From Psammoneis japonica (taxonomy: Eukaryota): DNA of 64,000 bases. Under the pieces are notes generated by a model. The model was given only the letters and a program-made list of their open reading frames with translations. It did no database searches and had not been told where the DNA came from. Positions 23,861 to 62,927 of this stretch are shown here, piece after piece; position 1 is the first letter of the stretch; the number at the start of each line of letters is the position of its first letter. Both the position numbers and the translations under genes were made by a program. The DNA lies in contig QPGO01000033.1 of the NCBI GenBank assembly GCA_008632985.1, forward strand, positions 558,001 through 622,000, read 5' to 3'.

Positions 23861-23899
23861 CCAAGCAAGAAGAACCAACCTGCAATTGCACTGTCTTGC

Positions 23900-28295: not shown

Positions 28296-28949
28296 TTGCT
28301 GACTTTGTCTGCAACCAATTTCATTGCAGCACCTGATGATGATTGTAAAGAGTCAACGAAATGCAGCACACACACCAAATCATCTGAGCAATGCGATAAA
28401 GAAACAATGTGCAGACTGCGCCGTGAGCTCAGCATTGTTCTCACAGCAGCATTGCAGTTTCTGTTCTGGTGGTGTCTTGCAATGATCCTTCACTGAAGGT
28501 CACAATGTTGTCAACACTTCTCAACAAGTTGATAAAAATGACAACATGCAATGGAAGGATGAGTGAGAATGGCATTGCATGAACAGCAAAGTTTGATGAC
28601 AACAGCAGTGTCAGTGGCAGTGTCATGGATGCACGCTTTTCCACCATTTGTGTCGTTGCAACATGTGGCAAATGCAGTGATGTCACAGAAAAGAGGGGAC
28701 TTGTTTTCTTGTTAAAATCTGCAGTGAATGCAGAATTTTTGTGGTGTTCTGTTTGTGGCGCTGCAGGCGGCCACAACCAGTTGGCCGGGTGAGGGGATGA
28801 CATGCAAAATTCTGGATTCCGATGTTCTGACTCACCCAACATGCATCTCTCAATCACGACCATAAAGACGACATCATCATTGCACAGCCCCACTCTCTTG
28901 CGCATGACAAAGGAGTTGTTGAGCTGTGCCGCTCTCATTGTTTTTCAAC

Positions 28950-31900: not shown

Positions 31901-32605
31901 TTGTCTGAATTCTCACCGCAACGCGACGTCTTGCACCTCAATCATTCGATTGCGATCATGGCAGAAATTGGCCAGCTTCCCATTTGGATGCTGCATTGTT
32001 GCCACTGCAAAAAGGATTCCCTCCCCAGCATGAAAATTGCCGAAGAATGTGGCCTGGGCAAGATGGATGATGCGGACATGTTCCGTTTGGCTCAAACCAC
32101 ACAGGGTGCACCCACTGTGCAGTTGAACAACGCCGGGGGTGATGACAAGAAAGACACTCACTTCACCATTTGTTTTGTTGAGAACATTCTTTGCAAAATG
32201 TTTTGCTTCTGGATCAGCAAAGGGAGGGTCAACCACTGTGATGTCCATTTTGCAGGAATGTCATTTTTTGTTTTCCACGAGAAGGCGAATTTTGTTTGTC
32301 ACTTTGATGGTTCCAGTGACCCCGAAGAGCTGCCTCCCGGTGGATCAATCCAAAACTTTGCATGTGATGGTGAGGAAAAAACGATGGAGGAGATTGCCAA
32401 GGAACTGTGTGAGGACAATGATTGGGCCGGGTCGACTTGGGATCATGGTCCCATTGAAATTGCTTTTGAGTTCAATTTTGACAAACTGCTGTCCAATCCA
32501 CCAGAGGCGATGTTGGACATTTTGGCCAAAAACAAAATGTCAAACAAAATGAGGGACCAATCTGCACAGCTCCACTTTACAAACAGAAATGGGAAAATGC
32601 AATGA
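28950..32605 (+). pseudogene. Decayed large gene: RS-rich N-terminal region, basic linker and a C-terminal globular domain containing VENILCK
   Basis: RSRSPS repeats at 29000-29950; long frames 29157-30740, 30668-31252 and 31334-32605. Confidence 0.5.
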
Positions 32606-32825
32606 GAGCAGATGCCCAGCTTGCATGTCCTTCTTGTCCCCCGCAACTGGCTGCGTGTGGGCCACAACAGTGCGTCTTCAAACAAAAAAGCATGTGCGCT
32701 GCTCCTGCGCGGGTCTATCCACCATTGGAGCACGTGCACTGCTCATGCCACTGTCTCCCCCACACAGGCTGGATTGTCAACCGAGATGGATGACAGAGCA
32801 GTTGATGGTTTGCCGGCTGTCAACC

Positions 32826-33009
32826 TGAACAAATGCCACCATGACAGCCAAGAATTGGGTGCAAGACAAGACAGAGTGTTGAACAGCATCAACAGGTTCT
32901 AGAATTGTGAGATGTTGCGCTGCTGGGGCCACTGAATGAGCGACAGTGGACCAATCACCAACAGTGCATCAACTGCCTGTGTCCGTGACAGCACATCAGC
33001 ATTCATTCA
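32826..33009 (-). repeat. 3' LTR (184 bp) of copia A2, preceded on the minus strand by PPT-like gaggggac
   Basis: TG..CA ends; matches the other family A LTRs. Confidence 0.9.
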
Positions 33010-36000
33010 GTCCCCTCGAACTGACACTGGCTCCGCTTGGGTCAGATCGACAGACAAATGCAACCTGATGCTGCCCCATTCCAGGGCAGCAGTTGTGTTT
33101 TGGGGGGTGGGAAAAGCCGCACCTGCGCGGCAAACCCGTTTGGTTTGTCCCCTTTTGGGACTTGCCATGGGACGTGACTTGTGATTTCCCAGAGCTTTGG
33201 TCCAGGCAACAACTTGGTCAGTGCATCTGCCAGATTCGTGCGTCCGTCTTCCCAAGCAATGTGCGCCATTCCAGTGGCTTGTGCCTGACGAGTCCTGTGA
33301 CAAACAATTGCATTGTGCTTCTTCTTCAAAGTGGACTCTGGTTTAGTTGAGTTCTTGAAGACAGCCTCATTGTTGCAGAAAACGTTGGTGGCCCCATCCA
33401 TGGGGATTCCAAGCATCCAAAGCTTGCAATGCAAGGCTTCGATTTGCTCCACTGCAGTCTTCACAGCCACAAACTCCGACCCAAAAGCAGAGGATTCTAC
33501 GGCATTCTGCCGCTTAGAGCAATGCAAGATGGGCGCTTGTTGGACAAAGATCAGGATCCCAGTGTGGGACCTGCGCGTCACACGGCATCCGGCGTGATCA
33601 GCATCGACAAAGCAAGTGGCAGTCATGCTGTTCCCGCGTGCTTCCGGCACATTCGACGGCATTGGTTCAGCCGCGCCAGGGCAACATTCTTCCCAATCAC
33701 ACTTGGCAAAGCGACTCTCGTCAAAGACGGGCTCAGTGTCGTCAAACACCAGCGCAGACTTTGAGTGAGCCTTCAAGCATGCAAAGACATGGAGCACCTC
33801 GTCCAGGTGTCCAACTCATGGTGCTGCCAAGCAGGAGGACATGAGCGAGACAGCGACAAAAATGTCCACTCGACCCAGCTCAACTGCCCAACGTAGCACA
33901 CCTGCAAGGCCTTGACAGCAGCTGGCCGTTTTGGCATTCAACTCAGGTGAACCATCCAGTTCAGGCCTGTGTCCCGAGCTCAAGGGCGTCGACACCTTCA
34001 TCGGAAGACGCCTGTCAGTTTTCTTAAGCTCCAACTCAGCATCAGCTAATGCCCTTTTGACATGAAGGTCAGAGGACATGGCCCAGCATGTCTTGCTGTC
34101 CGAGTCAGACAGCTGGTGCTTTCTGATCTGGGCGCCCAAGCACTCTTCCGGTTCGCAGACACTTCTGTCCTTGAGCGTGCACCTGGAGCTCACATGATCC
34201 ATGACCTTCTGAGGTTCATGGGAGATGCACAACAAGTCGTCCACATAGACAAGTGCATGTTCCCAGTGCTTGAAGCCATCCGGCTTAACCGCAGCCTGCA
34301 TCCAGACATCCGGGTCAGCCTTGCAAGACTCGAACCCAGCGTCCCGCAGAGCAGCTGCCACATGTTCCCTAAATCTTGCACCTGAAGACTTGAGACCACA
34401 CAAGGCTCGGACAATGATCACCTGCCTTCCCTCGTTCTGCTTCCCAAATTCCAGGCCAGCAGCAGTGCAACACTTTTCCTCAGTGTGTGCGTTCAAGCAG
34501 GCACTCTGAACGTCAGCACTCAGGACCTCCAGGTCATTCAGAGCTGCTGCAGTGAATGCTGTCCTGGCGCTGTCACGCGACACCACGCTGGAACATGTTG
34601 ATTCCTTGGGTGGATCGGTTTGATGGCCTCTGGCCACGAACCTCGCTTTACGTTGGAGGGTGCTCTTGATGTCAAAGATCACATGCATCATCGCGGAATT
34701 CGAACGCAGGCATGACGTTGCGCATTTCCTTCTCGACAGCCTTGAACCAGAAGTCGGTCCCCGTTCTGTTGTCTGTTTCCACAGCTTCCTTGACAGATTT
34801 CGGGAGTTCAATTCTGAACTCATGCGTGCGTTTCCAGTGACGCAACTTGACTTTCTTCAGGATCCTTGATCTACAACGCAAGACGTCTTGGACCCACCAG
34901 TTGAAGGCTGGTTCACCAGCCACTTTGTTTGCTGCAGCGTGCTCAGCAACCTTGACTGGATTGGACTCCTTCAAATCCTTGAGAGGAACCCAGGATGCAG
35001 TCCCATCCTTCCATTTGACTTGCAGGTCCCAGCCCACAGTCGTCCTCCCAGGAGCACGCCTGCCAGTCTCAGTCATCATGCACCCGTCATCGGCTGTTAC
35101 GGCACGGGCATCACGTCGGTGATTGACTGTTTCCTTCATGATCTGGCAGGCATTCCCTTCAGAGTCGATCTGAGTGAACAGGTTCTCTGCAATTACGTCA
35201 GCAGTGTGGGAATCAGTGGATCTGTCAGGGAATTCCACGTCGCACATCCTCGAGTCCAGGACAGGGTTGTCGTTCCCAGTGCCAACAGGAACCCCGTCGC
35301 TGTCTCGCTTGCGTGCAATGGCCCTAGCATGAGTCAGCTTGCCTCCTCGTGGCAACATGACTTGAGCTGTGAGATGTTCATCTAGCCCTTCCAGGGCACA
35401 CTCATCAGCTTCCGGTTTGGAAGCGTCAGGTTCCACGGGTTCAACAGCATTGTCCCATTCGTCCATGAAGTCGTCAGGGAGTTCAGGGAAGTCAGCACTG
35501 GCGTCCTTTTCCGGGATGCCAAGCCATTCGATCAAAGCTTGATCAACCAATGCAAGATCCATCTGGATCGCCGGAGTTTACAGGTCATCCTCCGGTGTGG
35601 CCCACACATCCTTCCAAATGATGTCTTTGCCTGATTCGGGCAAAACAATGAATGCCATGTCGTCAGTGCAGTTGTCAGCTGCTCCGAGCCAACGGCCAAT
35701 GCACTTCTTTTCGTGTGGGAACTCCGCCACAGGCATGCAGTGATGAACAGGTTGACACCAATCAAAGAGAGAGAGGGAAGAGATGTCGGGTGTCAAACCT
35801 GTCACCTCCTCTTCTGGGACTCGTCCTCCCACATCCGATGCACTGGTCACAATCATGCGTCAGATGTCACATGTCCATTTGGCGCCACAGGACCAAAGTC
35901 GCCTGTGAGCGCCAGTCCAGCGTAGAGTCACACGGACTCTTTTCTTCAACTCACAAATGGGTGCCTCGGCTGGGTTCTGCCAGGGGCTGCAAGGGGTGGA

Positions 36001-38680
36001 CACCTCCTGGTGCATCCTGCATTCCTTGCAGATCTCTTTGGTCTGGCCTTCTGCCATTTCTGGTGCGCCATCCGACACAAGGACCTGCGGTGCGCCAACG
36101 TCATGTGTGAATGACATGACGGCCTCTGGGTGGTCCTGTTTCCTCTGCCAAGGATGGAACCTGTCACACCCTCTTCCGTTGGCAAATGCACTTCCTCCCA
36201 TCTCGCCATGCATTGATTTGACCTTCGAAAACATCTGGTCGGAGCAGAATCGTCCCTTGACAGCAGGGAACTTAAGCCAAGGGGCTTTCTTCCAGACTTT
36301 CCGTTTGGATGGTGTGTGGACATTGCGGACCCCTGCCTGGGTCGTCACTCTAAGGGTTTTCTCAGCGGCCGTCAGGCCAATGTTCCACCTTTTAGAGAGC
36401 ATCTTGGGCGTGATGGTCGATGCACGACTCGAGGTCGACAGTGCATGCACCCGTTGCTGCTTGGCACAATCCGGGTGGACATCCAGGTCGTGCCGGTCGT
36501 GTGGCCCGTCTCCCTCAGTGTCGTTGTGGGAGAAATTCACCTGAGCAACAAGGCGGTGATACAAAGAATCGTCGTCATCAGCGTCCACAATGACACTCTT
36601 GTCGTGACAGGACGTTTGGCATGAATGAATGGAAGCGACACACCTGGTCGCATTCATCATCGTCGACCATCCGTCCGGCTTTGCTGATCCTTGGCGCACA
36701 CCAGCACATGCATGTGCTTCCTCCTTTTGCACCAGGGCATCAGTGGAAGGCTCCCCAGCAGGGGTGATGCAAGTTCCAGCAGGGGGAGGTTCTCAAGATC
36801 CTCCTTTGTCGGCTTGTGTGAATCAAAGACTGAAGCAACACCTCGTGTGCGCAATGGCATCCTGATCTTCGAGTCAGGAAAAGAAATGGAGTGTGTGCTG
36901 GTCGGATCAAACTGGCGAGGGGTGTCGTGGACAATCAGCCCATTTGCTCGCAGTTGGTTGGGGCATGGGAGGGTGTCAGTCATCTTGTCCCAAAAAACAC
37001 AGCCTCGTGGACCAGCAGCAGGCATGGTTGTCCATCAGTTGGATCAACCCACACGGCAGCAGCCGTGCAAACAGGAACTTTTTCCATTGGTGCACGCTCT
37101 TTGGAGCAGGGGTGCACCACGACAGTTCTGTCGATGTCAGAGCACATCACAAAATTGGACCCAACAGCACACGTGTCAGCGTGCGAGTCCAAATCAGTGG
37201 TGGCTTCGTCATCTGAATGCCCAGCAGATGACAAAGAGACACGTTGGCGGCAGGTTCACCAGGCTCTTTGGAGTCTTTCGGTGTGTCAGCAGGTTGAGTG
37301 GCAGGCTCGGCAACAGCTGCTTTCTTCACAGCGCGAGTTTTGGTGTCGACCGACTCAGCCTCCGAGGATGCAGCAGCAGCTTTGCGTTTCTTTTCAGCCT
37401 TCTTGGCATCGTGGAGCTTTTGGACTTGCTCTCGTTCGGGACCATCAAGAGCATTCCACTCTTCAACAGGACAATGGCCTGCCCAGATCCTGGGCTTGTC
37501 CTTCTTGGGTTGGTGCTTCCCACCAGGGTTGCTGCGCCGATTGTTGCGGCGTTGGATGGATGCGTTCCTGCGAGTGTCAGCATTGCGGTTCTTGGCATTC
37601 TCGACCAGAGTTTTCATGTGCTGCTGGCATGCCTCGAAATCCACCAGCTTCGTTGGGTCTCCATCCACTGCACTCTCACCAGTTTCCAACCTGGGGTCGG
37701 AGATGCCCTTCAGAAAGTCAGAGACCTTCATGGTCTCGGCCACCGGTTCATCAAGCTCAGACAAGTCATTGTGAGCCTTTTGATGATGCTGAGCGCACTG
37801 GTCAAAGGTAAATCGACCCCGTCCAGTGTGCTTCGCGGCAGCAATCTGTGCATGTGCTCGGTTCTTGCAGGTGGTGGCGGCAGCCGATCCTTCTGCCTGC
37901 CTCTCAAGTGCAAAGAAAGCAGTGCGACCATCGCGGCTGCGATTGGAAGGTTTGACAAAAGCCCATCCGGGCCCCCCCTGTCACTGGCTTCTTCAAGAGA
38001 TCATGCAGACGTTGCCTGTCCTGTGCATGCTGAGCTCCTGCAAGGTGGGCAGCAGCAACAAGGTCCTCGTCAATGGCAGCGCAGGTGGCAGCCAACATCT
38101 CGGCGGTGACCTCTTCATGTTCCCCAACCAGGCAGATGAGGGGCACTCCGGCAACGGCACTGCGGTGGTGACGCAGTTCGGTCTCTAGCAGCTCTTGGAA
38201 GGTGGGCCAGTCGCATGGGTTCTTGAGCTCCATGGCCATTTTGGCAGCCGATTCGTCATCCGAGTTGGCGGACTTGAATTGCTCCAGTTCCGTGAGACGT
38301 GCCGTCCATGTTCCAGTGACGTTGCCAGTGAAGAGAGCAGCGGTCGGCTCTTGGTTCCGGGCTCTGTGGCAGTCAATCCATGCACGCAGAGCCTTGAGCT
38401 TGCGATTCGCCAGGTGTGGGAATTGGACTTGGGGGGTTGGCGGCGGTGTCCACGCTCTTCACAATGCCCTCAGTCACATCGGCAATTTCCGTCAAAGGGA
38501 CCTGCTCCAGGTCCTCGATCGCAGTGAAGCCTTGGCGGGCTGTGCAGGCACGCGTCTGCGCATTGCATCCACAGTGCGCAAGACAGGCGGCAAAGGCTGC
38601 GAGAGCGGCCATGGTGTGTCAGCAGTTGTTCACGTTTCGACGTGTGAGCATCTACTTGTGTGAGTGGAGGAAAGTGAGAA
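32826..38680 (-). mobile_element. Copia family A copy A2: gag (from 38612), protease, integrase, RT, RNase H and 3' LTR; 5' LTR missing; internal deletions
   Basis: KARFVARGH, ALCGLKSSG, YVDD (34236-34247), FVDADHAG..SKRQNAVESSAFGSE. Confidence 0.95.
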
Positions 38681-38794
38681 TGACACACCCCCTCAAGATG
38701 AAGAACCAAAGAAAGATCACCCAGATGAGGGGGGCACCGGCAAGCCACCAGATGACAAAGCGACTTCTGACAGAGACGGAATGTCAGAGCAAAT

Positions 38795-41262
38795 CTTTGT
38801 GATTTTGCACCCTTTGTCATTTTGCACCCTTTGCCACCATTTTGCACCCTTTGTGATTTTGTGCCCTTTGCCGCCATTTTGCACCCTTTGTGATTTTGCG
38901 CCCTTGACGCGTCCAGCCCTGGGTGGGAGCTCGCAGTGCTGACGTGTGACAACAATGATTTTTGTCATCCGTCGCATGTTTCGTGCGCAGATTTCCACGT
39001 GTGACATTTAAAAAAAATGTCCAGACTCGCTGTTTTGCGAAGCCCCAGACGTTTTGCACAACAAATTTACAGAAACAACAATGTGCCAGTTGCATTCTTC
39101 AATGTCTGAAGAATGTAACTGGCTGAGTAAAAAATGATGTGCTTCAATCATGTGCGAGTTTGTGCGTTCACAAAATTGCCTCATTTTCTGTTGGCGATCA
39201 TTGACGCTTTAATTGCCGCATGATTTTGCTGCGGAGCTCGCACGTAGAAGTCTGTGGGCCCAATGTCACACGGATTCCCACCTGCGTCTGGAATGCATCC
39301 CTTGGCCATTTTGCGCCCTTTGTGATTTTGCACCCTTTGCCGCCATTTTGAGCCCTTTGTGATTTTGCACCCTTTGTGATTTTGAGCCCTTTGCGACTTT
39401 GGGCCCTTGGCCATTTTGCACCCTTTGTGATTTTGCACCCTTTGCCGCCATTTTGCGACATTTGTGATTTTGCACCCTTGCCGCCCTTGACCATTTTGCG
39501 CCCTTGGCAATTTTGCTCCCTTTGTGATTTTGTGCCCTTGGCCATTTTGCACCCTTTGCGACTTTGTGCCCTTGGCCATTTTGCGCCCTTTGTGATTTTG
39601 CACCCTTTGTGATTTTGCGCCCTTTGCCGCCATTTTGCACCCTTTGCTGCCATTTTGCACCCTTTGAGATTTTGCACCCTTTGCCGCCATTTTGCACCCT
39701 TTGTGATTTTGCACCCTTTGTGATTTTGCACCCTTGGCCACTTTGCACCCTTTGTGATTTTGAGCCCTTTGTGATTTTGAGCCCTTGGCCATTTTGCACC
39801 CTTTGTGATTTTGCACCCCTTGCCGCCATTTTGCACCCTTTGTGATTTTGCACCCTTGGTCATTTTGCACCCTCAGTCATTTTGAGCCCTTTGCGACTTT
39901 GCGCCCTTGGCCATTTTGCACCCTTTGTGATTTTGCACCCTTTGCCGCCATTTTGCACCCTTTGTGATTTTGTGCCCTTTGCAGCCATTTTGCACCCTTT
40001 GTGATTTTGCACCCTTTGCCACCATTTTGCGCCCTTTGTGATTTTGCACCCTTTGTGATTTTGAGCCCTTTGTGACTTTGGGCCCTTGGCCATTTTGCAC
40101 CCTTTGTGATTTTGCACCCTTTGCCTCCATTTTGCGCCCTTTGTGATTTTGCGCCCTTGCCGCCCTTGACCATTTTGCGCCCTTGGCAATTTTGCTCCCT
40201 TTGTGATTTTGTGCCCTTGGCCATTTTGCCCCCTTTGCGACTTTGTGCCCTTGGCATTTTGCGCCCTTTGTGATTTTGCACCCTTTGTGATTTTGCGCCC
40301 TTTGCCGCCATTTTGCACCCTTTGCTGCCATTTTGCACCCTTTGAGATTTTGCACCCTTTGCCGCCATTTTGCACCCTTTGTGATTTTGCACCCTTTGTG
40401 ATTTTGCACCCTTGGCCACTTTGCACCCTTTGTGATTTTGAGCCCTTTGTGATTTTGAGCCCTTGGCCATTTTGCACCCTTTGTGATTTTGCACCCCTTG
40501 CCGCCATTTTGCACCCTTTGTGATTTTGCACCCTTGGTCATTTTGCACCCTCAGTCATTTTGAGCCCTTTGCGACTTTGCGCCCTTGGCCATTTTGCACC
40601 CTTTGTGATTTTGCACCCTTTGCCGCCATTTTGCACCCTTTGTGATTTTGTGCCCTTTGCAGCCATTTTGCACCCTTTGTGATTTTGCACCCTTTGCCGC
40701 CATTTTGCGCCCTTTGTGACATTGTGCCCTTGGCCATTTTGCGCCCTTTGTGATTTTGCACCCTTTGCCGCCATTTTGGGCCCTTTGAGATTTTGCGCCC
40801 TTTGTGATTTTGCACCCTTGGCCATTTTGCGCCCTTGGCCATTTTGCTCCCTTTGTGATTTTGTGCCCTTTGTGATTTTGTGCCATTTGCCGCCACTTTG
40901 CACCCTTTGTGATTTTGTGCCCTTGGCCATTTTGCAACCTTTGTGATTTTGCACCCTTTGCCGCCATTTTCCGCCCTTTGTGATTTTGCACCCTTGGCCA
41001 TTTTGCACCCTTTGTGATTTTGCGCCCTTTGCCGTCATTTTGCGCCCTTTGTGATTTTGCACCCTTTGCTGCCATTTTGCTCCCTTTGTGATTTTGCGCC
41101 CTTGGCCATTTTGCGCCCTTTGTGATTTTGCACCCTTGGCCATTTTGTGCCCTTGGCAATTTTGCTCCCTTTGTGATTTTGTGCCCTTTGCGATTTTGCG
41201 CCCTTGGCCATTTTGCTCCCTTTGTGATTTTGCACACTTTGCGATTTTGCGCCCTTTGTGCC
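38795..41262. repeat. Minisatellite 2: 17/20-bp units (TGATTTTGCACCCTTTG, CCATTTTGCACCCTTGG, CCGCCATTTTGCACCCTTTG) with a 678-bp higher-order duplication; interrupted by a MITE
   Basis: Visible array; the marker cattttgcaccctcagtcattttgag occurs at 39861 and 40539. Confidence 0.95.
38906..39299 (-). mobile_element. MITE (394 bp), ~24-bp imperfect TIR, TSD CCTT
   Basis: cctt|gacgcgtccagccctgggtggga ... tcccacctgcgtctggaatgcatc|cctt; removing it restores a satellite unit. Confidence 0.9.
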
Positions 41263-42993
41263 CTGAGCTCAAGGGCATCAACGCCTTTGTCGGAAGGCCC
41301 GCCAGTTTTCTTGAGCTCCAACTCAACTTCGGCCAATGCCCTTTTGACACAAAGGTCAGAGGACATGGCCCAGCATGTCTTGCCATCCAAGTCAGACAAC
41401 TGGCACTTTCTGATCTGGGCGCCCAAGCACTCTTCCGGCTCGCAGACACTTCCGTCCTTGAGCCCGTGCCTGGAGCTCACATGATCCACAGCCTTCTGAG
41501 GTTCATGGGAGATGCACAACAAGTCATCCATGCACACAAGCACATGTTCCCAGTGCTTGAAGCCACCCAGCTTGACCGCAGCTCACATCCAGACATCCGG
41601 GTCAGCCTTGCAAGACTCGAACCCAGCATCACGCAAGGTGGCTGCCATGTGTTCCCTGAGTCTCGCACCTGAAGACTTGAGACCACACAAGGCTCAGACA
41701 ACAATTGCCGGCCTTCCTTCGTTGTGCTTCCCAAATTCCAGGCCAGCAGCAGTGCAACACTTCTCTTCAGTGTGTGCGTTCGGTTCACCAGCTGCCTTGT
41801 TTGCTGCAGCACACTCAGCAACCTCGACTGGGTCAGATTCCTTCAAATCCTTGAGGGGAACCCAGGATGCAGTCCTGTCCTTCCATTTGACTTGCAGGTC
41901 CCAGCCTGCAGTCGTCCTCCCAGGAGCGTGCCTGCCAGCCTCAGTCGTCATGCACCCGTCATCAGCCGTTGCGGCACGGGCATCACATCGGCGGTCAACT
42001 GTCTCCTTCATGATCTGGCAGTCATTCCCTTCAGAGTCCATCTGAGCAAACAGGTTCTCTGCAATTGCGTCAGCGGCACAGGAAACAGTGGATCCATCAG
42101 GAAACTCCACATCGTGTGTCCTCGAGTCTGGGACAGGGTTGTCATTCCCAGCACCAATGGGAACCCTGTCATCATCTCATTTGCATGCAATGACCCCAGC
42201 ATGAGTCAGCTTGCCTCCACGTGGTGACATGACTTGAGCTGTGAGGTGTTCATCTGGCCCCTCCGGGGTGTGCTCATCAGCTTCTGGTTTGGAAGCATCG
42301 GGTTCCATGGGTTCAACAGCATTGCCCCATTCGTCCATGAAGTCATCAGGGAGTTCAGGGAAGTCAGCATTGGCGCCCTGTTCCGGGATGCCAAGTCATT
42401 CGATCAAGGCCTGATCGACTGACACAAGATCCGCTTTGATCGCCAGAGTTTCAAGGTCATCCTCCGACAAGGCCCACACATCTTTCCGAATGATGGGTCT
42501 GCCTGATTCGGGCAGGATGACAAATGCCATGTCGTCAGCGCAGTTGCAGTTGTCGGCTGCTCCAAGCCAACGGCCGATGCACTTCTTCTTGTGTGGGAAC
42601 TCTGCCACAGGCATGTGACAGCAGACAGGTTGACATCAATCAAAGAGAGAGAGCGATGAAATGTCAGGTGTTGAACCTGTCACCTCTTCTTCTGGGACTC
42701 GTCCTCCCATGTCCGATGTGCTGGCAGTCGCAATCATGCGTTGGACATCACATGTCCATTTGGCACTGTGGGACCAAAGTCGCCTGTGAGCGCCAGTCCG
42801 GCACAGAGTCACTCGGACTCTCTTCTTCAACTCATGGATGGATGCCTCGGCCAGGTTCTGCCAGGGGCTGTGCGGGGTGGACACCTCCTGGTGCATCCTG
42901 CATTCCTTGCAAATCTCCTTGGTCTGGCCTTCTGCCATTTCCGGTGCGCCATCCAACACAAGGACTTGCGGAATGCCAACGTCATGCACAAAT

Positions 42994-45900: not shown

Positions 45901-48353
45901 GGTGGTCGGGAGGGAGACGTCTCCATTGGACACTGGTGAGGCTGGGACCGCGGGTGCAGGCAGCATTGGCTTGAAGGACGTCAACGTCGCTGTCAATGTC
46001 GTAGAACACATCGTCGGACGGTTCCTCGGAGTAGACGTCGTGTGCGCACATGGCGCGTCGGGGAGCTCGAGGTGTCGTCTTGGGTTGAAACGTGCTGTTG
46101 TACTGAGCTGCCGCGGAGAGGAGCAAGCCACAGCATTGATCGTATGTGAGGCTCTTGCCACTCTGCGTACGATGCTGATCAGCTTGGTTCTTGACAGCAC
46201 GGAGTTCCTCGACAGGGTGCACGGCATTCTCGAGCATGACGCGCTTCTGTCCTTCAGAGAAGTGGTCACTGGCCGGGATGAGTGCCTCGTACTTGCGCAA
46301 CTGATCTTGCCAATGAAGGATGAACCCGTGGGTCGGACCTTTCCAAGTGCCATCACCAAGACGTGCGGTGGTGAGGCACGTGAGCAGGGTGGAGGACTCG
46401 ATGGATGCGCGGGTGGAGGCAAGCGCGCACTCAGACAAGGAGCGGCAGACGGTCTGTGCATCAGAAGACCCCACATTTTCGCGAATGGGAGCCTTGCCCT
46501 TGTCGGTGAGAAGGATGCGTTCGAAGACGGTGAACATGCACTTTTGCTGTTCAGCAAAGAGCAGCTTGTCTTCGGGGCTGGTCGGTTTGTACGACGAGTC
46601 TAGAATGCACTCGACGTCTTGGGCACGGGCTTGTGCCACAAGTGAGGTGTGCCAAGTGTGCCACTGCTTGTCGGATTTGAGAGCCGTGAAAGCGGTGGGA
46701 TCACGCTTGATGCCTCGCTTGAAGTCCCGCACCGGGTCGCGTGCCTTGGTCGGGTTGGTGACATGTGGAGGTGCAAGGGGTGAGCTGCCGATGGACACAC
46801 AAGACATGCAGTCGGGGCTGAGGCGGCAGGCAAGGAACTCGTCATGCGCGAACAAAGAGGAGTCATTGGCAACGTCAAGACCTTTGTGTGCTTTGACAAT
46901 GTGCAGACTGACTGGTGCTGCTAACATGTTCTTATAACCACGGGGCAAAGGGATCACATTAGTGCCGTTGTCGCACTCAAGCGAGTCGATTTGGGACGGT
47001 GTGAACGTGAACAGTTCCTGATGCGAGTCCGTGCCGTCTTGGGCCAAAGCCAAACGAAGAGGACTCCCAGCACCTTGGGCAAGCACGGTTCCAACCACGT
47101 GCTCGAAACCATCGGTTTGTTGCTGACGAGTGAGAACCATGGCAGACAAAAGTGGTGTCAGGACAATCAATTCTGGTTGGGAAGCGAAGGTAGACTCGAA
47201 ACTTGGGTGAGAACAGACTTGACTTGAAATGGACTTGACTTGAAATCTTGAACTGTCTTAAAATCAGAAGTCGCCGGGCTTTGTTATCCCGTTCGTTGTT
47301 GAGTGCTAAACTTCCTATCCGGTCCGTAGAGTTGTGCCGGCACGTCCGGACCCGCAGCCAGTGGCGCTTTGGGTTGCTTGCGAGCGGAGCAGCGGGTTGT
47401 AAACCCCTGCAGGTGAGCTGACCAGAGGTGGACAAGACCCCCGAACCGTTCTTATTTTACATCGGTTGGATTTCCCGATCAGGCTGGCCAGTTGACGCAG
47501 GCGTCAGGCGCTGTGGACGAACAAACAAACGCGGGAAAGCACCCTCGCCCCAACGCAGGCTGTGGTCACGGCTGCTTGCTCTCACAGTCGTCCTCGTGGA
47601 CCCAGCAGAACTGTAGAGCACCAGCAGTCCGGGGTAGATCAGGTACAATGGACTCGGTGTGCTTGTAGAGTGGTGGCAAAACCGCAGTCCGAAGAGTGGG
47701 TACAGGTTCTTGGCCGTGAAGATGTGCACACATACATGTCTTCAGCGACAAAGATCCTTGAATATGCAGGGTTCTTGACCGTTAACCGATGAATGGGTAT
47801 GTCAAGGGATGAGGATCAAGGATAGACTTGGACATGACCGTTGAATGTATGTCTTCAGCGATCAAAGGTAGCACAATCAATCCAGATATCCAGCGGTAAG
47901 GAGACTTGACGGTGACGTTAACTTCCTGCCGATGCCCTGGCATTGAATGCGCGTAGACTTGCCGATGCATGTAGAATGTATACGGAGGTCCACGTAGAAT
48001 TGAAATAGCGTCGTTGGTAAATCAACGACGACGATGGCGGTTGCTCAATGGGTTGACAATGAGCAAGACTGTTAATCTGACAGAAATTGAAGGCAAATGG
48101 CAAGAGTTCAAACAACAACTCCTTACTGCTGTCCAAATGGCAGATGAGTCTCCGCTCAGAGACCGTTGCAGGAGCCGAAAGACGTGCAAGTCGGCATGAT
48201 CGGGCTACTGTCATTGTTCTTGTGAGCCTTGTGGCTCGAAAGCAAACTACATCGCGCGTGAACGCGCGGAACTAAAGCACACAAAACTGTGCACGGTAAA
48301 CTAAACAGCGCGCGATGCTTCGCGCGCACCCAAATCCTGTTCAAATCCTGTCA
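42994..48353 (-). mobile_element. Younger copia element, here family C (CoDi-type): 5' LTR, gag-pol from ~47140, integrase core deleted, truncated within RT
   Basis: DFKRGIKRDP, protease LVDRGANGG, HQNFAER, VYDVKHDGRHKARLVADGH, DIGNACL, ALHGLRSSG. Starts TGACAGG on the minus strand exactly at the break in family A. Confidence 0.9.
47429..48353 (-). repeat. Putative 5' LTR of element C (inner boundary uncertain)
   Basis: TG at the outer end; a candidate CA end is followed after 4 nt by TGGTCAGCTCACC (PBS-like). No second LTR is available for confirmation. Confidence 0.45.
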
Positions 48354-48758
48354 GACATGATGGCATTCGGGTGGTCCTGTTTCTCTTCCAAGGATGGAGC
48401 CTGTCATGCCCTCCTCCGCTGGCAAATGCACTTCCTCCCATCTCGCCATGCATTGACCTGACCTTTGAAAACATCTGGTCAGAGCAGAAGTGTCCCTTGA
48501 CAGCAGGGAACTCAAGCCACGGGGCTTTCTTCCAGACTTTCCGCTCGGATGGCACGCCAACATTGCGGACCCCTGCCTGGGTTGTCACTCTGAGGGTGTT
48601 CTTGGTGGCCGTCACACCAATGTTCCACCTCTTGGAGAGCATCTCCGGGTGTGATGGTTGATGCACGACTTGAGGTCAACAGCGCATGCACCCATTTCCA
48701 CTTGGCACAATCCAGGTGGATGTCTGGGTTGCACCAGCCGTGCAGCCCGTCTTCCTCA

Positions 48759-49714
48759 GACGGGTTCCAGCCCCAGGTGGGACTTTTTGTGACATTGGGC
48801 CCACAGAATTCTGCGTGCGAGCTCCGCAGCAAAATCATTGGGCAGTGAACATGTGAATGATTGCCAACAGAAAAAAAGGCAACCCCGCAAACGCATCTCC
48901 TCCTCCACACTTGAAGCATGTGCTTTGCAGCATGCCCGGGTGTGTTCTTCAGACATTGAAGAACACACCCAGTGTGTGATGTGTTCCAGCCGCACGTGAA
49001 CCAAATCGTGCACAGAAAACGACATTTGCACGATTTTTGCGCGGTCCCTAACTTGCTGTCGAACTTTCACCACCAAAAGCATGGATTTGTCCAAATGCAA
49101 ATGTTTTGCAACACTGACAAGACTCGTGTGAGTGTTGCAACATCATTGTCATTGTGCTGTCTGTGTTTTTCATTGCGTTAAAAGATTCGTAACACAACGG
49201 ATGATTTTCGGCAAAAATGTTGCCATCATTTGGATGTCACCTGAACATGTCTTTCTGCTGTGCTGCTTGGCAGATTTTCTACCTGCAAAGAAATCTCAGC
49301 ATAAATCCACTGACGTACAATCAGTGTTGAGTCCACTGAGGAAGTTTGTGACACATGTCCCATGAGGACTTGAATGCCCCACAAAAAACTGTTTAAATGT
49401 TCATGCTCTAGACGCCTGTGAAAGCCAATCCGCTCAAGTGTTTTGTGTGAAAATGCTTCGTGCACTTAAAGACACATGATTTACACTCAAAATCGATTGT
49501 CGTTTTGTGCGTCACCTGGGACTGGAACACGTCGTGTTTTTGTTGACATGAGTGCAGACAACAGAAAGCCTTTGGCTTCGCAAAACAGGCGGTGTGGAAC
49601 AATTTTTTGTGACAGAGCATGCAGAAATGTGCACGCAAAACATGCGACGGATGACAAAAATCAAACATGTCACAGCTCAGCAGTGCAAGGTCCCACCCAG
49701 AGCTGGAGCACGTC
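48759..49714 (+). mobile_element. Longer member of the MITE family (956 bp), TSD CTCA
   Basis: ctca|gacgggttccagccccaggtggga ... tcccacccagagctggagcacgtc|ctca; the empty site is seen in A1 and A2. Confidence 0.9.
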
Positions 49715-49945
49715 CTCAATGTTGTTGTGGGAGATGTGCTCGCCTGAGCAACCAGGCAGTGATGCAGAGAATCGTTGTCATCAGTGTCCACAATGGCGTT
49801 CTCGTCATGATGAGATGTTTGGTGTGAATGAATTGAAGCGACACACCTGGTCGCATTCATCATCATCGCCTGTCCATCAGACTTCACTGACCCTTGGCGC
49901 ACACTGGCACATGCATGCGCTTCCTCCTTTTGCGCCATGGCATCA

Positions 49946-51525
49946 AAACCACAATTCTGCATTTAAAGTGCTGCTGCGCTTCCACCCTGCAACTCTGACA
50001 ACAAGCCAACCCACACCCCCAGTGCACCAACAGCGCGGCAGGAATGCATTGCGATTGGCCAAGATGGGCGTCACCAACAAATGATGATGCCCGCCAGGAA
50101 CAGTTGGGAGTGGTGTCACAGACAGCAACAGCAAATTAAAAACAAAACCAAAATTCTGTGTTTAAAGTGCTGCTGCGCTTCCACCCTGCAACTCCGGCAA
50201 CAAGCTGACCCACACCCCCAGCACACATGTGTGCGGCAGGAATGCATTGTGACCAGCCAAGATGGGCATCACCAACAAATGATGATGCCCGCTGGGAACA
50301 GTTGGGAGTGGTGTCACAGACAGCAACAGCAAATTGATTTGGAACCTTCAAAGCACTTGAAACCACAGCAATGGAGTGGCTCTTTGCTTCTGGCTGGATC
50401 TGATCATTCCACTGAAGCAAGCCGTGCTGGAACATTCCAAAGTGAGAAGGGATCTGAAACAGAGCAAACACCGCAAATTTCACAAACAGGGACCAAAACA
50501 TCACCAACCTCCGAGTTGGTCTCAAAATCAAACTTCTGGTGGCAGCAACAACAAAAAGGAGTTCACCACACAGAGCAAAGAACTTAAAAAGGCACTGAGG
50601 AAAGGGGGGGTCATTGGAGCTTGGCAGGTGCAGATGGAGAGCCGTCGGATGATTGGAAAACAGGCCATCAGAAAATGTTTTCATGACACGCAGAACTTGT
50701 GCTGAGTCTTGCACAGGAACTTGGCAGGAAGCATTGGCAAACAGGCAAAGATCCAAATCAAGCCGAGTTGATCTCGAATTCACACTTCTGGAAGCAGCAA
50801 AGATGGAAGGGTGTTCGCTGCACAAAGCAGAGAACTTAAAAGGACAGCAGGCACAGGGGGGGTCTTTGGAGCTTGGCAGGTGTGGACAGAGAGCAGTTGA
50901 GAGATTGGGAGATCGGCCATTTGAAAATGTTTCCTTGACGTGCAGAACTTGTGCCGAAACTTGTGTGGACTTGTCGGCACAAGGAAGGTTGGCCAACGCA
51001 CACTGAGCTGGTCTCTTCTTCAAACTTCTGAAAGGAACAATGACAGGAAGATGTTCGCCACATGACACAGGAAACTTGAATGGACAACAGAGAGAAGGGG
51101 GGTCGTTGACACTTGAGAGGCATGGAGAGAGAGCAGTCAGCAGTTTGACGAGTCGTTCATCTGAAATGACTTGCAGAACACACAGAATTTGCACTGAGAC
51201 CTGTGTGGAAACTTTGCAAGTGAGAACAAAAAATGTCAAGAAGAACGTCAAGCAATTGAGCCAAGAGAGCTGGATGCAATTCGTTTTCCACTGCATGAGA
51301 TTGTCGCTGATCATGGAACAATGGCATGTCGACAAAGGAGCGCATGTGGAAAAACATGCAGAGGGTGCAGCTGTGAAACAAAGGCAGAATTGTGGCCACA
51401 AGGAATGCATGGAATCGCACAAGAATCGATCATTGCCAACAATGCAAAGGCAGCCAATTGGTTGTCCTCGTGTCATGACTTCTTTTTTCTTTTTGTGGGA
51501 GCCGCGTTTTGGTTTGCATTCAGCA
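49946..51525. mobile_element. 1.58-kb insertion flanked by a 13-bp direct repeat, containing internal ~200-bp and ~240-bp tandem duplications
   Basis: cgccatggcatca at 49933-49945 and 51526-51538; single copy at the empty site in A1. Confidence 0.75.
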
Positions 51526-54082
51526 CGCCATGGCATCAGCAGAAGGCTCCCATCTCAGGGGTGATGTGAGTTCCAGCCGGGGAAGGTTCTCCAGATCCTC
51601 CTTTGTTGGCTTGTGTGAGTCAAAAACTGAAGGAACACCTCGCATGTGCAACGGCATCCTAATCTTCGAGTCAGGGAAAGCAACAGAGTGTGCACTGTTA
51701 GAATCAAACTGTCGAGGGGTGTCGTGGGCAGTCAGTCCATTTGCTCGCAGTTGGTTGGGGCACAGCAGATTGTCAGTCATCCTGTCCCCGAAAAACATGG
51801 CCTCATGGGCTGACAGCAGGTGTGGTTGTCCATCAGTTGGATCAACCTGCACAGCAGCAGCCGTGCAAATGGGAATGTTTTTCATTGGCGCGTGCTCTTC
51901 GAAGCAAGGGTGCACCATGACAGTGCGGTCGATGTCAGAGTGCATTGCAAAATTGGACCCAACAGCACACGCATCAGCATGCGAGTCCAAGTCATTGGTT
52001 GCTTCACCATCTGAATGTCCAGCAGATGACAAAGAGACACACACATCCTTTGAGAATTGCCCAGACAAATGCACAGTGCCAGCAGGTTCAGCAACAGTCG
52101 GCTCTGTGCTTTTTGGTGCTGGCGCAACTGTTCATGCCTCTTTCTGAGGTTTCTTGTGGGCGCTGCGTCTGAACTGCTTGCCTTCGTTGGCAGCAGGTTT
52201 GCCTGACTCTTTGGAGTCCTTTTGTTCATCAGCAGGTTTGGGTTCAGGCTCGGCGACAGCCACCTTTTTAACAGTGCAAGTTTCGACATCAACCGACTCA
52301 GCCTCTGAAGATGCAGCTGCTGCTTTGCATTTCTTCTTGGCTTTTTTGGCCTCACAGAGCTTCTTGACTTGCTCTTGCTCAGGACCATCAAGAGCACTCC
52401 ACTCTTCAATGGGACAGTGGCCTGCCCTGATCCTGGGCTTGTCCTTTTTTGGTTGGTGCTTGCATCCAGGGTTTCTGCACCAGTTGTTGTGGCGTTGGAC
52501 GGATGCGATTCCGCCAGCATCAGCATTGCAGTTCTCAGCATTTTCTGCCAGAGTCTTCACACGCTGCTGGCATGCTTCGAAATCCACTGGCTTTGTTGGG
52601 TCTCCATCCACTGCACTCTTGCCAGTCTCCAACCCAGGGTCGGAGACACCCTTGAGAAAGTCAGAGACCTTCTTGGTCTTGGCTGCCGGCTCATCAAGCT
52701 TGGACAAGTCATTGCGAGCTTTCTGATGGCATTGAGCGTGCTGGTCGAAAGTGAAACAACCCCATCCAGTGCACTTTGCGGCAGCAATCTGTGCACAGGC
52801 ACGGTTTTTTGGGGTGGTGGCAGCAGCCGATCCTTCCGCCTGCCTCTTGAGTGCAAAGAAGGCAGTGCGACCATTGTGGTTGTGATTGGAAGGTTTGACA
52901 AAAGCCCACCCGGCCCCCCCTGTCACTGGCTTCTTCAAGAGATCACACAGGCATTGCCTGTCCTGTGTGTGCTGAGCTCCTGCAAGTCGAGTGGTGGCAA
53001 TGAGGTCTTTGTCAATGGCAGAGCAGGTGGCAGCCAACATTTTGGCAGTGGCGTCTTCATGCTCCCCAGCCAGGCAGACAAGGGGTGTGCCGGCAATGGC
53101 ACTGTGGTGATGGCGTGGCTCACTCTCCAGCAACTCTTGGAAGGCAGGCCAGCCATGCAGATTCTTGAGTTCCACGGCCGTCTTGGCAGCCAACACATCG
53201 TCCGAGTCCGCTGACTTGAATTGTTCCAGTTCTGTGAGACGTGCCATCCATGTCCCAATGACGTCACCAGCAAAGAGAGCAGCAGTCGGCTGTTGGTTTC
53301 GGGCTCTGTGGCAGTCAACCCATGTGCGCAGTGCCTTGAACTTGCGATTCACCAGGTGTGGGAAGTGGACTTGCGGGTTGGCGGTGGCATCCACGCTTTT
53401 CACAATGCCCTCAGTCACAGCAGCAATCTCTGCCAAAGGGGCCTGTTCCAAGTCCTGAACAGCAGCAAAGCCTTTGCCGGCTGTGCAGGTGCGCGTCTGC
53501 ACATTGCATCCACAATGCACAAGACAAGCGGCAAAGGCCGCGGCAGCGGCCGCCGTGTGTCAGCAGTCACTTGCATTTCGATGCGTGAGCATCCACTTGT
53601 GTGAGTGGAGAAAAGTGAGAAAAGATTTGGTGGTTTCTGCTTGGCAACCCCGTGAGCAGGTGGTGTCACTCCTGAGCAACAATTTCCAACAGACGTGCAC
53701 CCACATGTGCAGTGTGTCCAAACCATTTGACAGCGCACTTTGGTCAAACAAATGCGCACAGTCAATTGACAGACCTCAGCACACAAATCATTGTGTTGTC
53801 TTCATCACAAATGTTTGCATGTCTCAGCCAACATGTTCCATCCACGTGATCAAACATTCCGTCCACTGACGTCATGTCCAGCGGATCACAGCTCTGGTCT
53901 CCAAGAGCGTGTCGTTCACATCCATGAATGTTGGCATGTGCAAAAGACTCAGCGATTGCGTGAGCAACCATGGGACCAACATGGCTCTTGCCACAAAAAT
54001 CGATCAATCGCAACGTGCCGTTGCGCTGTTTGCGATGCCCGTTCCAGACGATGAACATCACAGTGCATTGGCTCTGACAAAG

Positions 54083-54266
54083 TGAACAAATGCCACCATG
54101 ACAGCCAAGAACTGGGCACAGGACAAGACAGGGTGTTGGACAGCATCAACAGGTTCTAGAGCTGTGAGATGTTGCGCTGCTGGGACCACCAAACAAGTGA
54201 CAGTGGACCAATCGCCAACAGCACATGAACTGCCCACATTTGTAACAGCATGTCAGCATTTGTTCA
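54083..54266 (-). repeat. 5' LTR (184 bp) of copia A3/4, followed on the minus strand by PBS-like ctttgtcagagcc
   Basis: Matches 12988-13171 and 32826-33009. Confidence 0.9.
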
Positions 54267-54485
54267 TGATTTTGCACCCTTTGCGATTTTGCACCCTTTG
54301 CCGCCACATTGCGCCCTTTGCGATTTTGCACCCTTTGCCGCCATTTTGTGCCCTTGGTCATTTTGTGCCCTTTGCGATTTTACATCCTTTGTGATTTTGC
54401 ACACTTTGCCGCCATTTTGCGCCCTTTGTGATTTTGCGCCCTTGGCCATTTTGTGCCCTTTGTGATTTTGTGCCCTTTGCCGCCA
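54267..54485. repeat. Distal remnant of minisatellite 2
   Basis: Same 17/20-bp units, in the same orientation as 38795-41262. Confidence 0.9.
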
Positions 54486-54769
54486 TCACATGTGGTGCAT
54501 TTGGGATGGGAGGGTTCAGGTTTGGGTCATGAGGTGGCACAAAACGCTTCCGGTTGAATGACAGACCCCACCTGATTGATGCCAAGTGGCCGTGGTTGAA
54601 GGACAGACCACACAAAAATGGATGCGCACCCGTGTCTGTTTCTCATCCACAGTCGAACTCAGGACATGCATTTGCCAAAGCTGTCGATGCAATTTTGCTC
54701 CTGTCAACAGACAGACCATGCAAAATGGATGCGTGCCCGCATCTAATTCGCATCCACAGTCAAGCTCAG

Positions 54770-57700
54770 GACACGGCCTCATTGTCGCAGAAGACGTTGG
54801 CGGAGCCATCGATGGGAGCACCCATCATGTGAAGCTTGTGTCGAAAGGCCTCGATCTGCTCCACGGCAATTTTCATCACAACAAATTCCACATTCCTGAA
54901 AACGTGATTGATTGAAGGTCAGTTCCGTGTCATCGAACACCATCGCTGACCTGGCATGTGCCTTCAAACAGGCAAAGATGTGAAACTCCTCATCCAGGTG
55001 CCCAACCCTTGGTGCTGCCAAGCAAGAAGACAGAAGAGAGACTGGCGCTGCAATGTCAGTGCGCCCCAGTTCCACCACCCAACACAAAACGCCAATGAGT
55101 CCCTGGAAACAAGTCGCCCTTCGGGCATCCAGCTCAGGTGCAGCGTCAAGTTCAGGGTGATGCCCCAAACTCAATGGCGTTGTGACTCTCTTCTTGAGTC
55201 CCCGGCCTGCACGGCCGAGTTCAAACTCAATGTTGGCAGTGGCCCGCTTGACACACAAGTTAGATGAAAGGGCCCAACATGTTTTGCCGTCCGAGTCAGA
55301 TGGTTGGAACTTCTTCACTTCGGCACCCAGGTGCTCTTCCGGTTCCTTGACGCTTCCCTCTTTTAGCACATGTCTCAAAGCCATGTAATCCATGAACTTC
55401 TGGGGTTCATGCGAGACAACCAGCAGGTCATCTGCATGTGCAAGCATGCATTCCCAGCACTTGAAGCCATCCAGCTTGGCATTCTTGTGCATCCACACAT
55501 CGGGATCACCCTTGCCACAGGTGAATCCCACGAGCCTTGGCGTTGCTGCCACATGTTCCCTAAAAGCAGCGCCGGAACTCTTCAGTCCGCACAGGGCCCT
55601 GACAATTTCAACGGGTCGACCGACACTCTGCTTGCCAAAGTCCAGGCCAGCAATTGTGCAACAGCACTCCTTCATTGGTGCATTCAGACGAGCATTCTGA
55701 ATGTTGGCACACATGACTTCCAAGTCATTCAGAGCTGCTGTCGTGTGGCCTCCAGCCACGTGTTGCGCTTTCCTGTTCAAGTCCAACTTGATGTCAAACA
55801 CCAAGTGGCACTTAATTTCCTTGTGTCCCATCTGGTCATCATCGACAAATTCGAAGGCTGGCATTGCATTGTGCATCTCCTTCTCAATTGCATTTCCCCG
55901 CAGGTCAAGCCCAGACTGTTCATCCAGCATCAAGGCCTGCTCCACGGATTTTGGCAATTCGACACCGAATTTGTGAGTGCGCTTCCAGCACCTGGTCTTG
56001 ACTTTCATGACCATCCTGGCATGACGACGCAACATGTCTCGAACCCACCAGTTGAACGCTGGCTCACCAGCCATCTCATTTGCAACAGCATGCTCCGTGA
56101 CTTGGACAGGGAATGATTCTTTTGCCTCCGACAAAGGGAGCCAACTAGAGCTTCCATCTTTCCACTCAAACTGTGTGTCCCAGTCAATCGTCGTTCGGCG
56201 GGGCCTGCGCGTGCCACTCTTTGTGACAAAGAAACCATCATCTTTGTGCACTGTGCATGCGTCACTTTGGTGACCTGCAATCTCTTTGACAATTTGGCAA
56301 GATCGTCCCTCCCCTTCAACCTGGGAGCAGATGTTCTCAGCAATTAAATTGGCTGTGAACATGTCGGCAGATCTGTCTGGGAACTCTACCTCGCAAAGCC
56401 GTGAATCCAGGACAGGCTTTTTGTGCCGCTTCCCTGTCTGATTTCCATCCGCAACGCGCTTCCTGGCAACAACTTTTGCGTGCTGCAGCTCACCAGCTCG
56501 TGTGAGCCTAAGTTCCACCGCCAGACACTCATCCATTGCCTCCGGCGTGAACTCATCTGCTTCCAGATGAGTTGCATCTTCTTTGAATGGCTCTGCATTG
56601 GCATCTTCCTTGCCAAATGGGTCTTCGGGTGGTTCTGGGAACTTGTCACTCCCTTCCTGACCGTCCCCTGGCCTGAGTTTCAGACTGGCATCGAGATGCT
56701 CAATCTTTTGCCAAATCGCATTGGTCTTCAAGTCATCCTCAGGCAGAGCCCACACATCCTTCCAAATGATGGGTGTGCCTGATTCAGGTGGGATCACAAA
56801 TGCCATGTCATCTGCACAGTTTTCTGTGACACCTGACCAGCGCCCGATGCACTTCCTTTCAAAGGGAAATTTTGCCTGAAATGTCATAAAGTGCACCGGC
56901 TGGCACCAGTTGAAGAGGGCATGAGCTGAGACGTCTGGTGTTGAACCCGTGATGTCCTCTTTGGGGACTTTCCCATCCATTTCCGGATGCTCAGAGGCCG
57001 TGAGCCTCCTGACAGCCATGGCCCACTTGGCACAGCAGGACCAGCAGCGTTTTGGCGCATTCGTGCGCCTTGTTGCAATCCGCACTTTCTTCTTCAGCTC
57101 ACGAATGGAGGCTTCGGCCAAGTTCTGCCGTGGACTGCAAGGAACAGCAACCCCTTGTTTGATCTGGCACCCCAATGATTCGTAATGGGATCCGGACCTT
57201 GGAGTCCGGGAAGGCAATTGAATGAGTGCTGGAGCTGCCAAACTGCTTTGGCACATCATGCACCATCAAGCCGTCAGCATGGAGCTGATTGGGACATGTC
57301 AGTGAGTGTTTCATCCTGTCCCCAATGTGCATGGCCTCATTCAAGATGAGGAGGTGTGGCTGACCAGAACTTGGGTCAACCCAGACAGCAGCAACCGTCT
57401 GCATCGGGATGTTGTTGATCGGGTCACATTCACTGGAATGTGGATGTGCAGTGAAAGCACGAGAGGGGTCAGAGAAGGGAACACAGCTGGATCCTGCAAT
57501 GCATGTGTCGGCATGCGTGTCCAGCTTGTTGAAAAGGGAGTTGTCACCTGCATCAGTGTTGACTGAAGCTGTGTGTCTTAAGGATTTAGCAAAAGGCACA
57601 GACACATTTCCATTGGTGCAGACAGAAGCAGCATCACAAGAATTGATTTGAGACTCCATTTTAACTTCTACAAGGTTGTTGTCCTTGCTCATTGGCGCAA

Positions 57701-59846: not shown

Positions 59847-59849
59847 CTG

Positions 59850-62800: not shown

Positions 62801-62927
62801 TCCATGGTTGCACACGCCTCACCAGAGCCTTCCTTGACCGTCCCTGACAAGAAGGCCAAGCCTGCATCTCACTCGAAACCAGCACCTCCTTCATTGTCTG
62901 GTGATGTGCCATTGTCTGGGGAGGGAG
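59850..62927. other. TpA-depleted decayed coding-like sequence, unassigned
   Basis: Broken frames such as RRTCRACQCQDCKGRGG near 60770 and 62212-62847; no domain recognised. Confidence 0.3.

Follow-up and report, generated by a model that had tools for sequence, protein, structure and literature searches.

Loss of TpA on either strand of copia retrotransposons after insertion in the diatom Psammoneis japonica

Why should neighbouring copies of a retrotransposon carry cysteine at a conserved tyrosine position in one place and histidine in another? The question is raised by a 64,000-nucleotide stretch of the Psammoneis japonica genome (GenBank assembly GCA_008632985.1, contig QPGO01000033.1, positions 558,001 to 622,000 of the forward strand; hereafter the window), in which the YxDD motif of the reverse transcriptase (RT) of Ty1/copia elements reads YVDD, CMDD, or HADD, in each case on the minus strand (Table 1). 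The preliminary description of this DNA took these readings, and similar variants in integrase and gag, as outcomes in sibling copies of changing the TA that opens a tyrosine codon on one strand (TG, Cys) or the other (CA, His), independently in each copy and after insertion. All of the motifs were found in place, and a pattern far beyond chance was confirmed. It is almost certainly the product of change from TpA to TpG or CpA in chromosomal DNA, after insertion, on both strands, independently in each copy, and specifically at TpA. The sibling relationship held for the copies with YVDD and CMDD; the HADD copy was only 68-69% identical to both in DNA and is therefore a member of a related subfamily.

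Columns in which an alignment holds both CA and TG can arise from TA or from CG, and were therefore polarised against homologs. For the family of the two siblings (family A), we aligned the best 30 of 104 candidate genomic copies; the query had tyrosine at the active site, so that a slight bias is possible. Conserved tyrosine columns were scored in these 30 copies and in 72 intact polyproteins from other sources. The homologs held Y 1964 times, H 27 times, and C 5 times; the family A copies held C in 331, H in 218, Y in 59, and R in 5 of 676 cells. In the YVDD copy, the other scored conserved tyrosine positions were Cys or His in 20 of 20 cases and the RT-RNaseH part was changed at 109 of 124 TA-class sites; in the HADD copy, 15 of 17 scored positions were Cys or His. 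Among pairs of adjacent columns, both single-transition states were held in 301 of 753 pyrimidine-purine (YpR) pairs, as compared with 35/756 RpY, 6/872 RpR, and 5/714 YpY pairs. The tyrosine columns thus polarise to TA, but CpG decay also yields CA and TG, and with them His and Cys. The first cysteine of the gag variant CLCDLL, for example, is not a TpA outcome as had been proposed, but an arginine codon altered by CpG decay (CGC to TGC).

Two overlapping processes, TpA loss and ordinary CpG decay, are present. The family A alignment contains 110 columns with TA, CA, and TG and 135 with CG, CA, and TG, and no column with TA and CG each in at least two copies; change from TA to CG was rare, at 8/3863 and 3/3704 cells. 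TpA loss and CpG decay per copy were uncorrelated (rho 0.15, p 0.43): 13-28% of TA sites were changed in four copies with normal CpG decay, and 67-100% in the other 26. Tyrosine codons always start with TA, and the copies therefore lose nearly all tyrosine and would be dead; the stops TAA and TAG are erased too, and reading frames therefore stay open, as in a truncated family A copy in the window that retains an open frame of 1021 residues with two tyrosines. In-frame stops of the genomic copia RT matches were nearly all TGA, as loss of TAA and TAG together with decay of CGA would lead one to expect, and open frames in dead copies exceeded 1400 codons.

An element inserts with two identical long terminal repeats (LTRs), and sites at which they now differ therefore record later changes in the chromosome. 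We fetched 20 long stretches and compared the LTRs of 13 elements that had both. These pairs were 85-96% identical (local alignment) and held 176 differences: 75 of TA against CA or TG, 50 of CA against TG (a class in which origin from TA or CG is undecided for each pair), 23 of CpG type, 25 others, and 3 gaps. The TA/CA/TG class thus accounts for 125 of the 176. Change after insertion, which three copies alone could not have established, has direct proof in these pairs. Where one LTR had TA and the other CA or TG, it was the 5' LTR that retained TA in 61 of 75 cases. The letters themselves were matched in public run X1 (platform not on record; it may be the assembly's own sample), 852 contigs of which cover, at 99% or more, each of the 30 bins into which window 32830-38680 was divided. 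No alternative letters were listed, and the coverage extends to copy-specific pieces, at a depth of 23-40.

At the 129 TA columns of family A, change to CA was seen 1269 times and change to TG 1257 times. The per-copy ratio was homogeneous (p 0.99 in this family, and p 0.18 in a further test), there were no runs of one strand along family A copies, and strand correlation did not persist past 2 bases, with no coupling at 3 bases or more. The proposal that each copy had changed independently was borne out: pairs of copies agreed on CA or TG at 0.595 against 0.601 expected (389 pairs), and at 21 conserved tyrosine positions at 0.588 against 0.588 expected, with full agreement in 0 of 391 pairs. 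A similar figure, 0.647 against 0.648 expected (321 pairs), was obtained in a younger family, B. A single burst per copy with strand segregation was also considered, and is rejected by the lack of strand runs and of any per-copy strand excess. In one pairwise comparison the strands stood at 65:28, mostly a family-wide lean that context largely predicts.

Family B, founded on the element nested at 43-48 kb of the window and sampled as the best 30 of 350 candidates, is only partly mutated. Between 5 and 80% of its TA sites were changed, while about 4% of CpG sites (297/7496) and 0.2% per site of private other changes were recorded. A to G was found in 2071 of 7438 cells at TA (0.28), as against 34/9220 at AA, 33/13880 at CA, and 34/13508 at GA (0.0024-0.0037), a background that was lowered by leaving out columns of neither the TA nor the CG class whose minor letter occurred in at least three copies. 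Transversions stood at 0.0003-0.0009, and C to T at CA in 11 of 13795 cells. Changed and kept sites clustered along copies, the 5' third often being spared (combined z -9.2).

The bases around a TpA influence its fate. Counted on the strand that carries the changed A, the rate by following base was C 0.48, T 0.41, A 0.28, and G 0.28 in family A and C 0.39, T 0.28, A 0.22, and G 0.16 in family B, which shows a rule of TAC > TAT > TAA, TAG. A CpG immediately 5' lowered change about threefold, to 0.12-0.13. Neighbour effects as modelled from family A predicted the columns of family B (rho 0.71). The TAs that survive in the depleted part of the window fit YTAR in 117 and RTAY in 28 of 273 cases; in genic DNA the counts are 112 and 190 of 670. 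Double changes within TATA fell on the same strand (TGTG or CACA) more often than not, at 109:34 over 13 sites in family B and 81:33 over 12 sites in family A; the same-strand share expected from sequential independent hits is 0.36-0.44 under a rough model built on 6 and 9 isolated sites; p was 3e-9 and 4e-4 in stratified tests.

Context also bears on the RT active site, where the variants first described are real but where tyrosine is unusually resistant: it was kept in 19 of 30 family A copies, as compared with 0-5 at the 20 other tyrosine columns, and the YVDD codon lies in a resistant context. Selection on the catalytic residue is an unlikely cause of its survival. Another site with the same near flank was kept in 12 of 15 heavily changed copies, and the same copies are without nearly all of their other tyrosines.

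Sparing is patchy. Some copies in high-copy families are nearly untouched, and domain edges fall inside elements; in two stretches (L035 and L040) the body of the element is mostly changed, but TA persists at 44 of 56 and 46 of 56 sites in its first ~800 bases. In most family A copies the leader (columns 200-800) also shows less CpG decay than the body, which suggests a promoter region long unmethylated. The four family A copies with slight TpA change and full CpG decay lie in stretches L043, L045, L046, and L049, of which L043 lies in surroundings of normal TpA and also contains a family B insertion with almost no change.

The window itself is divided in the same way (Table 1). Its host genes have normal composition (TpA observed/expected 0.48-0.65, CpG 1.0-1.2); in a neighbouring gene-rich 10 kb (stretch L080) TpA is 0.38-0.87. 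From 8 kb onward CpG is lowered along with TpA, the exception being the young element, where TpA reaches 0.24-0.40 at 44-48 kb. A 1.6-kb TpA-poor island with sharp edges (2200-3800) lies between the first two normal host genes. Named relatives of one host gene are diatoms (Seminavis robusta, Bacillariaceae), as are those of the RT (Fragilaria crotonensis, Epithemia clementina).

Table 1. Features of the window, with positions counted from its first letter.
Feature	Position	Strand	Remarks
Host genes: bile acid:sodium symporter family, ion-transport-like, cytochrome P450	484..7683	+	Internal control
Repeat domain, TpA-depleted	8001..64000		TpA observed/expected 0.00-0.16 per 2 kb; CpA and TpG 1.3-2.1
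Truncated family A copy: LTR, gag, start of pol	12973..16853	+	NPHDW at 14233, RLHDLL at 14443, integrase PCS at 16609
Family A copy: gag-pol and 3' LTR (~32826-33010)	32826..38680	-	5' end missing; PCS at 35977, RLHDLL at 37994, NPCDW at 38207
RT motif YVDD	34236..34247	-	TAT GTG GAC GAC
Second family A copy, interrupted, partly deleted	41257..54266	-	Pieces 41257-42993, 48354-48759, 49704-49945, 51526-54266; 5' LTR ~54083-54266; holds CMDD, integrase PHS at 42858, CLCDLL at 52936
RT motif CMDD	41523..41534	-	TGC ATG GAT GAC; Tyr codon TA to TG; Val to Met of CpG type
Young copia family B element nested in second family A copy	42994..48353	-	67/126 TA sites mutated; left end inferred from protein match and junction with the A copy
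Related copia subfamily copy, ~69% DNA identity to family A	54773..58270	-	PCS at 57125
RT motif HADD	55427..55438	-	CAT GCA GAT GAC

What agent makes these changes? We give a little better than an even chance to an adenine deaminase of the host that is recruited to repeats in silent chromatin. Where DNA opens briefly, deamination would turn adenine into hypoxanthine, replication would fix G in its place, and a TpA would no longer be a target once either strand had changed. Each encounter would hit a few nearby adenines; many such low-dose encounters, spread over many cell divisions, would each mark one or two adjacent TpAs on one strand. Targeting would follow the state of the chromatin rather than pairing between copies, with domains set by chromatin. 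Adenine deamination is the leading chemistry because the preference for TAC matches that of early TadA-derived editors, which favour YAC (PMC7056309, cited in part), and because a deaminase has been proposed in the one precedent discussed below. The genome encodes an ADAT2-like gene on contig C26, a TadA-like gene on contig C38, and two of the A_deamin family. The latter are separate genes of ADAT1/ADAR type (L065 and L066, on contigs C40 and C79). One frame (L055:313-1785, contig C79) fuses a zinc deaminase domain to a 2-oxoglutarate (2OG)-Fe(II) dioxygenase.

Several points weigh against a deaminase of this kind, or against the simplicity of the pattern assigned to it. TACG is the natural context of TadA, and yet some of the sites that resist most, such as the YVDD codon, lie in TACG. 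The sequence cannot distinguish a modified A from a modified partner T. Among the deaminase matches of the genome we found none that was unusual or fused to a chromatin domain; save for the deaminase-dioxygenase fusion, they resemble housekeeping enzymes of tRNA and nucleotides. No deaminase fusion was found in 10 frames scanned (8 of the 27 DNA methyltransferase matches were inspected). The effect of a CpG's own state on the adjoining TA differed between families. The strand symmetry seen in family A was incomplete in family B, which leans to A to G on the sense strand with a TG share of 0.64 where context predicts 0.58; the residual lean is borderline (0.19, interval 0.00-0.37). Lastly, agreement over all TA columns was slightly higher between family A pairs with greater similarity at other sites (rho -0.34). 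This trend is absent for four of the closest pairs at tyrosine-only columns (0.47-0.74) and in family B (rho -0.03), and we read it as the trace of a few subfamily variants.

The same substitutions would follow if thymine were the modified base, that is, if the T of TpA in silent repeats were oxidised to 5-hydroxymethyluracil (5hmU) and further, mispaired with G, and was fixed as C. We think this unlikely, though it deserves weight, since its spectrum is identical at the level of sequence and the genome does hold a deaminase fused to a 2OG-Fe(II) dioxygenase. In a dinoflagellate 5hmU is enriched on repeats, and early work reported a TA/TC preference (PMC11071213, cited in part). That paper found no 5hmU motif in Breviolum, and its text does not contain the word 'mutation'. 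No TET/JBP match was found in the genome, a weak negative since the control search was empty too. TC is not targeted here, GA standing at 0.0025 where TA stands at 0.28.

Rather unlikely, too, is an error-prone polymerase of the Pol eta/iota type that would put G opposite T at TA in heterochromatin repair patches. Polymerases of this type favour G opposite T, and their action would account for change on both strands, for the short same-strand coupling at TATA, and for patchy domains. The hot spot of Pol eta is WA, however, that is, AA as well as TA, and AA in family B lies at background; transversions there are also scarce, and coupling is gone past 2 bases. We consider it improbable that the adenine of TpA is first methylated (N6-methyladenine, 6mA) or otherwise marked in repeats and then deaminated or misread. 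Such a mark would give the strict dinucleotide specificity and the domain boundaries observed, but the known eukaryotic 6mA contexts are ApT, not TpA.

It is very improbable that the changes arose before integration, by RT error or by editing of the element's RNA or cDNA, and as the main route this is contradicted by single insertions in which the two LTRs differ at TA sites. The sense-strand lean of family B and the two A_deamin-family genes speak in its favour. Strand-specific editing of RNA, as the preliminary description argued, would give only cysteine; in the alignment, Cys and His occur together, interspersed at tyrosine sites, in 29 of 30 copies. A multicopy repeat bearing an aminotransferase-like piece is TpA-poor too, as are methyltransferase-like pseudogenes. 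Finally, although modified bases can produce systematic errors in long reads and CpG decay is real here (the 135 columns above), an artefact of base calling, or of CpG decay taken for TpA loss, is barely credible given that run X1 returned the same letters, that tyrosine columns polarise to TA, and that the four copies with least TA change have ordinary CpG decay.

The feature is thus strong and real, and the process resembles a kind described recently in Bigelowiella natans, where TpA hypermutation affects integrated DNA of nucleocytoplasmic large DNA viruses and virophages (Mettrop et al., bioRxiv 10.64898/2026.01.13.699255). In the main text of that preprint, RT and DDE domains are enriched among TpA-poor coding sequences and an ADAT2-like deaminase is proposed; TpA changes to TpG or CpA on either strand, from AT to GC, in foreign or silent DNA only, and far above background. 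Restriction to TpA, change of both strands after integration, and sparing of host genes were all found here. The diatom has an ADAT2-like gene, but one of a housekeeping family. The two cases differ in that the rhizarian process was observed live, in two viral regions with a TpA rho of 0.45, while the diatom shows a near-saturated record in LTR retrotransposons (0.00-0.16). The ongoing rate in Bigelowiella was ~1000-fold over background in a subset of lines; the corresponding contrast in family B, between TA change and private other changes, is indirect. The neighbour rule, TATA coupling, sparing of the 5' LTR, and dating by LTR pairs do not appear in the part of the preprint drawn on here, and diatoms are nowhere mentioned in its text. 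In the literature searched, which included a 2025 preprint on diatom transposable elements, we found no description of the process in diatoms.

Other systems are less close. Repeat-induced point mutation (RIP) needs pairing of duplicates and a sexual cycle; here, nearly untouched copies and spared 5' islands occur within high-copy families. As in RIP of Neurospora and other Pezizomycotina, dinucleotide transitions restricted to repeats ruin coding capacity after insertion (PMC7296669, cited in part). The direction is nevertheless opposite, since RIP makes TpA from CpA and TpG by C to T and here TpA is lost. APOBEC and ADAR enzymes work before integration, on cDNA or RNA, and leave their mark on a single strand. 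In the diatom each copy is marked on both strands, and LTRs diverge after insertion; the likeness is that of a host-driven, motif-specific hypermutation of retroelements (PMC4866542, cited in part). Among retrotransposons, the elements resemble the CoDi Ty1/copia lineages of diatoms in RVT_2-type RT, length (~6.7 kb), and LTRs of ~190 bp with TG...CA ends; CoDi LTR pairs are 94-100% identical (PMC2806351, cited in part), and those described here are less so, mostly through TA changes. Assignment to Ty1/copia follows from RVT_2 matches, an integrase-type motif upstream of RT, and the LTR ends; a target-site duplication of 4 bases was read by eye in 8 of 12 elements having both flanks.

Is the signature found in other organisms? 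None of 239 homologs from two word-indexed searches exceeded 20% Cys/His at tyrosine sites. A full-library search returned 147 new related RT proteins, of which seven, taken from ENA, JGI, and Logan, had Cys or His at 62-88% of conserved tyrosine positions; one cluster member, of 1377 residues, has no tyrosine at all. The seven are 35-53% identical to each other. Three of them reached at most 47%, 54%, and 55% identity to the whole genome studied here among the matches listed (best candidates scored), and are therefore likely to come from other organisms. The protein sequences suggest TpA loss in the DNA that encodes them; two metagenome scans for that DNA gave one weak match of 19 residues only.

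Further repeats of the window and genome deserve mention. Tandem arrays of 17-base and 23-base units adjoin copia ends or breakpoints (window 39300-41260, 38795-38905, 54268-54486, and 12133-12987), and the 23-base array flanks another copy in stretch L038; differences within the arrays of the window are mostly of CA/TG and CpG type, with just five that involve TA, and their polarity is not assignable. An aminotransferase class III-like piece (window 22300-23500) recurs at 90-93% identity in no fewer than 12 further near-full copies, is TpA-poor in 7 of 7 fetched copies, and probably began as a host gene that a mobile element picked up; an unmutated parent gene was not found, the 79% match being itself TpA-poor. 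Several nearly tyrosine-free frames resembling C5 DNA methyltransferases lie in TpA-erased DNA (L120, L121, and L122; contigs C301 and C297) and possibly represent methyltransferase-carrying mobile elements. Five other strong C5 DNA methyltransferase matches have normal TpA.

In genomes of this kind, LTR-divergence ages, open reading frames, and the GC content of repeats mislead. The fingerprint obtained (strict TpA, TAC > TAT > TAR, low after CpG, same-strand TATA pairs) can be used to test candidate enzymes, and tyrosine-free, Cys/His-rich RT proteins are a cheap marker with which to find the process elsewhere. Within the literature searched, a natural chromosomal process from A:T to G:C has a single precedent, in a preprint; P. 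japonica supplies a near-complete record of it in a second eukaryotic supergroup. Laboratory adenine editors had to be evolved from a tRNA enzyme. It is a tentative proposal, which we hold to be possible rather than probable, that diatoms carry a natural, chromatin-targeted adenine editor of DNA, a defence that would act as RIP in reverse, edit neighbouring TpAs on one strand at each encounter, spare active promoters, and be shared with Bigelowiella and several unsequenced hosts of diatom-type copia elements. If true, this would be an old and widespread immune system of protists, and one from which a natural A-to-G editor of chromosomal DNA could be drawn.

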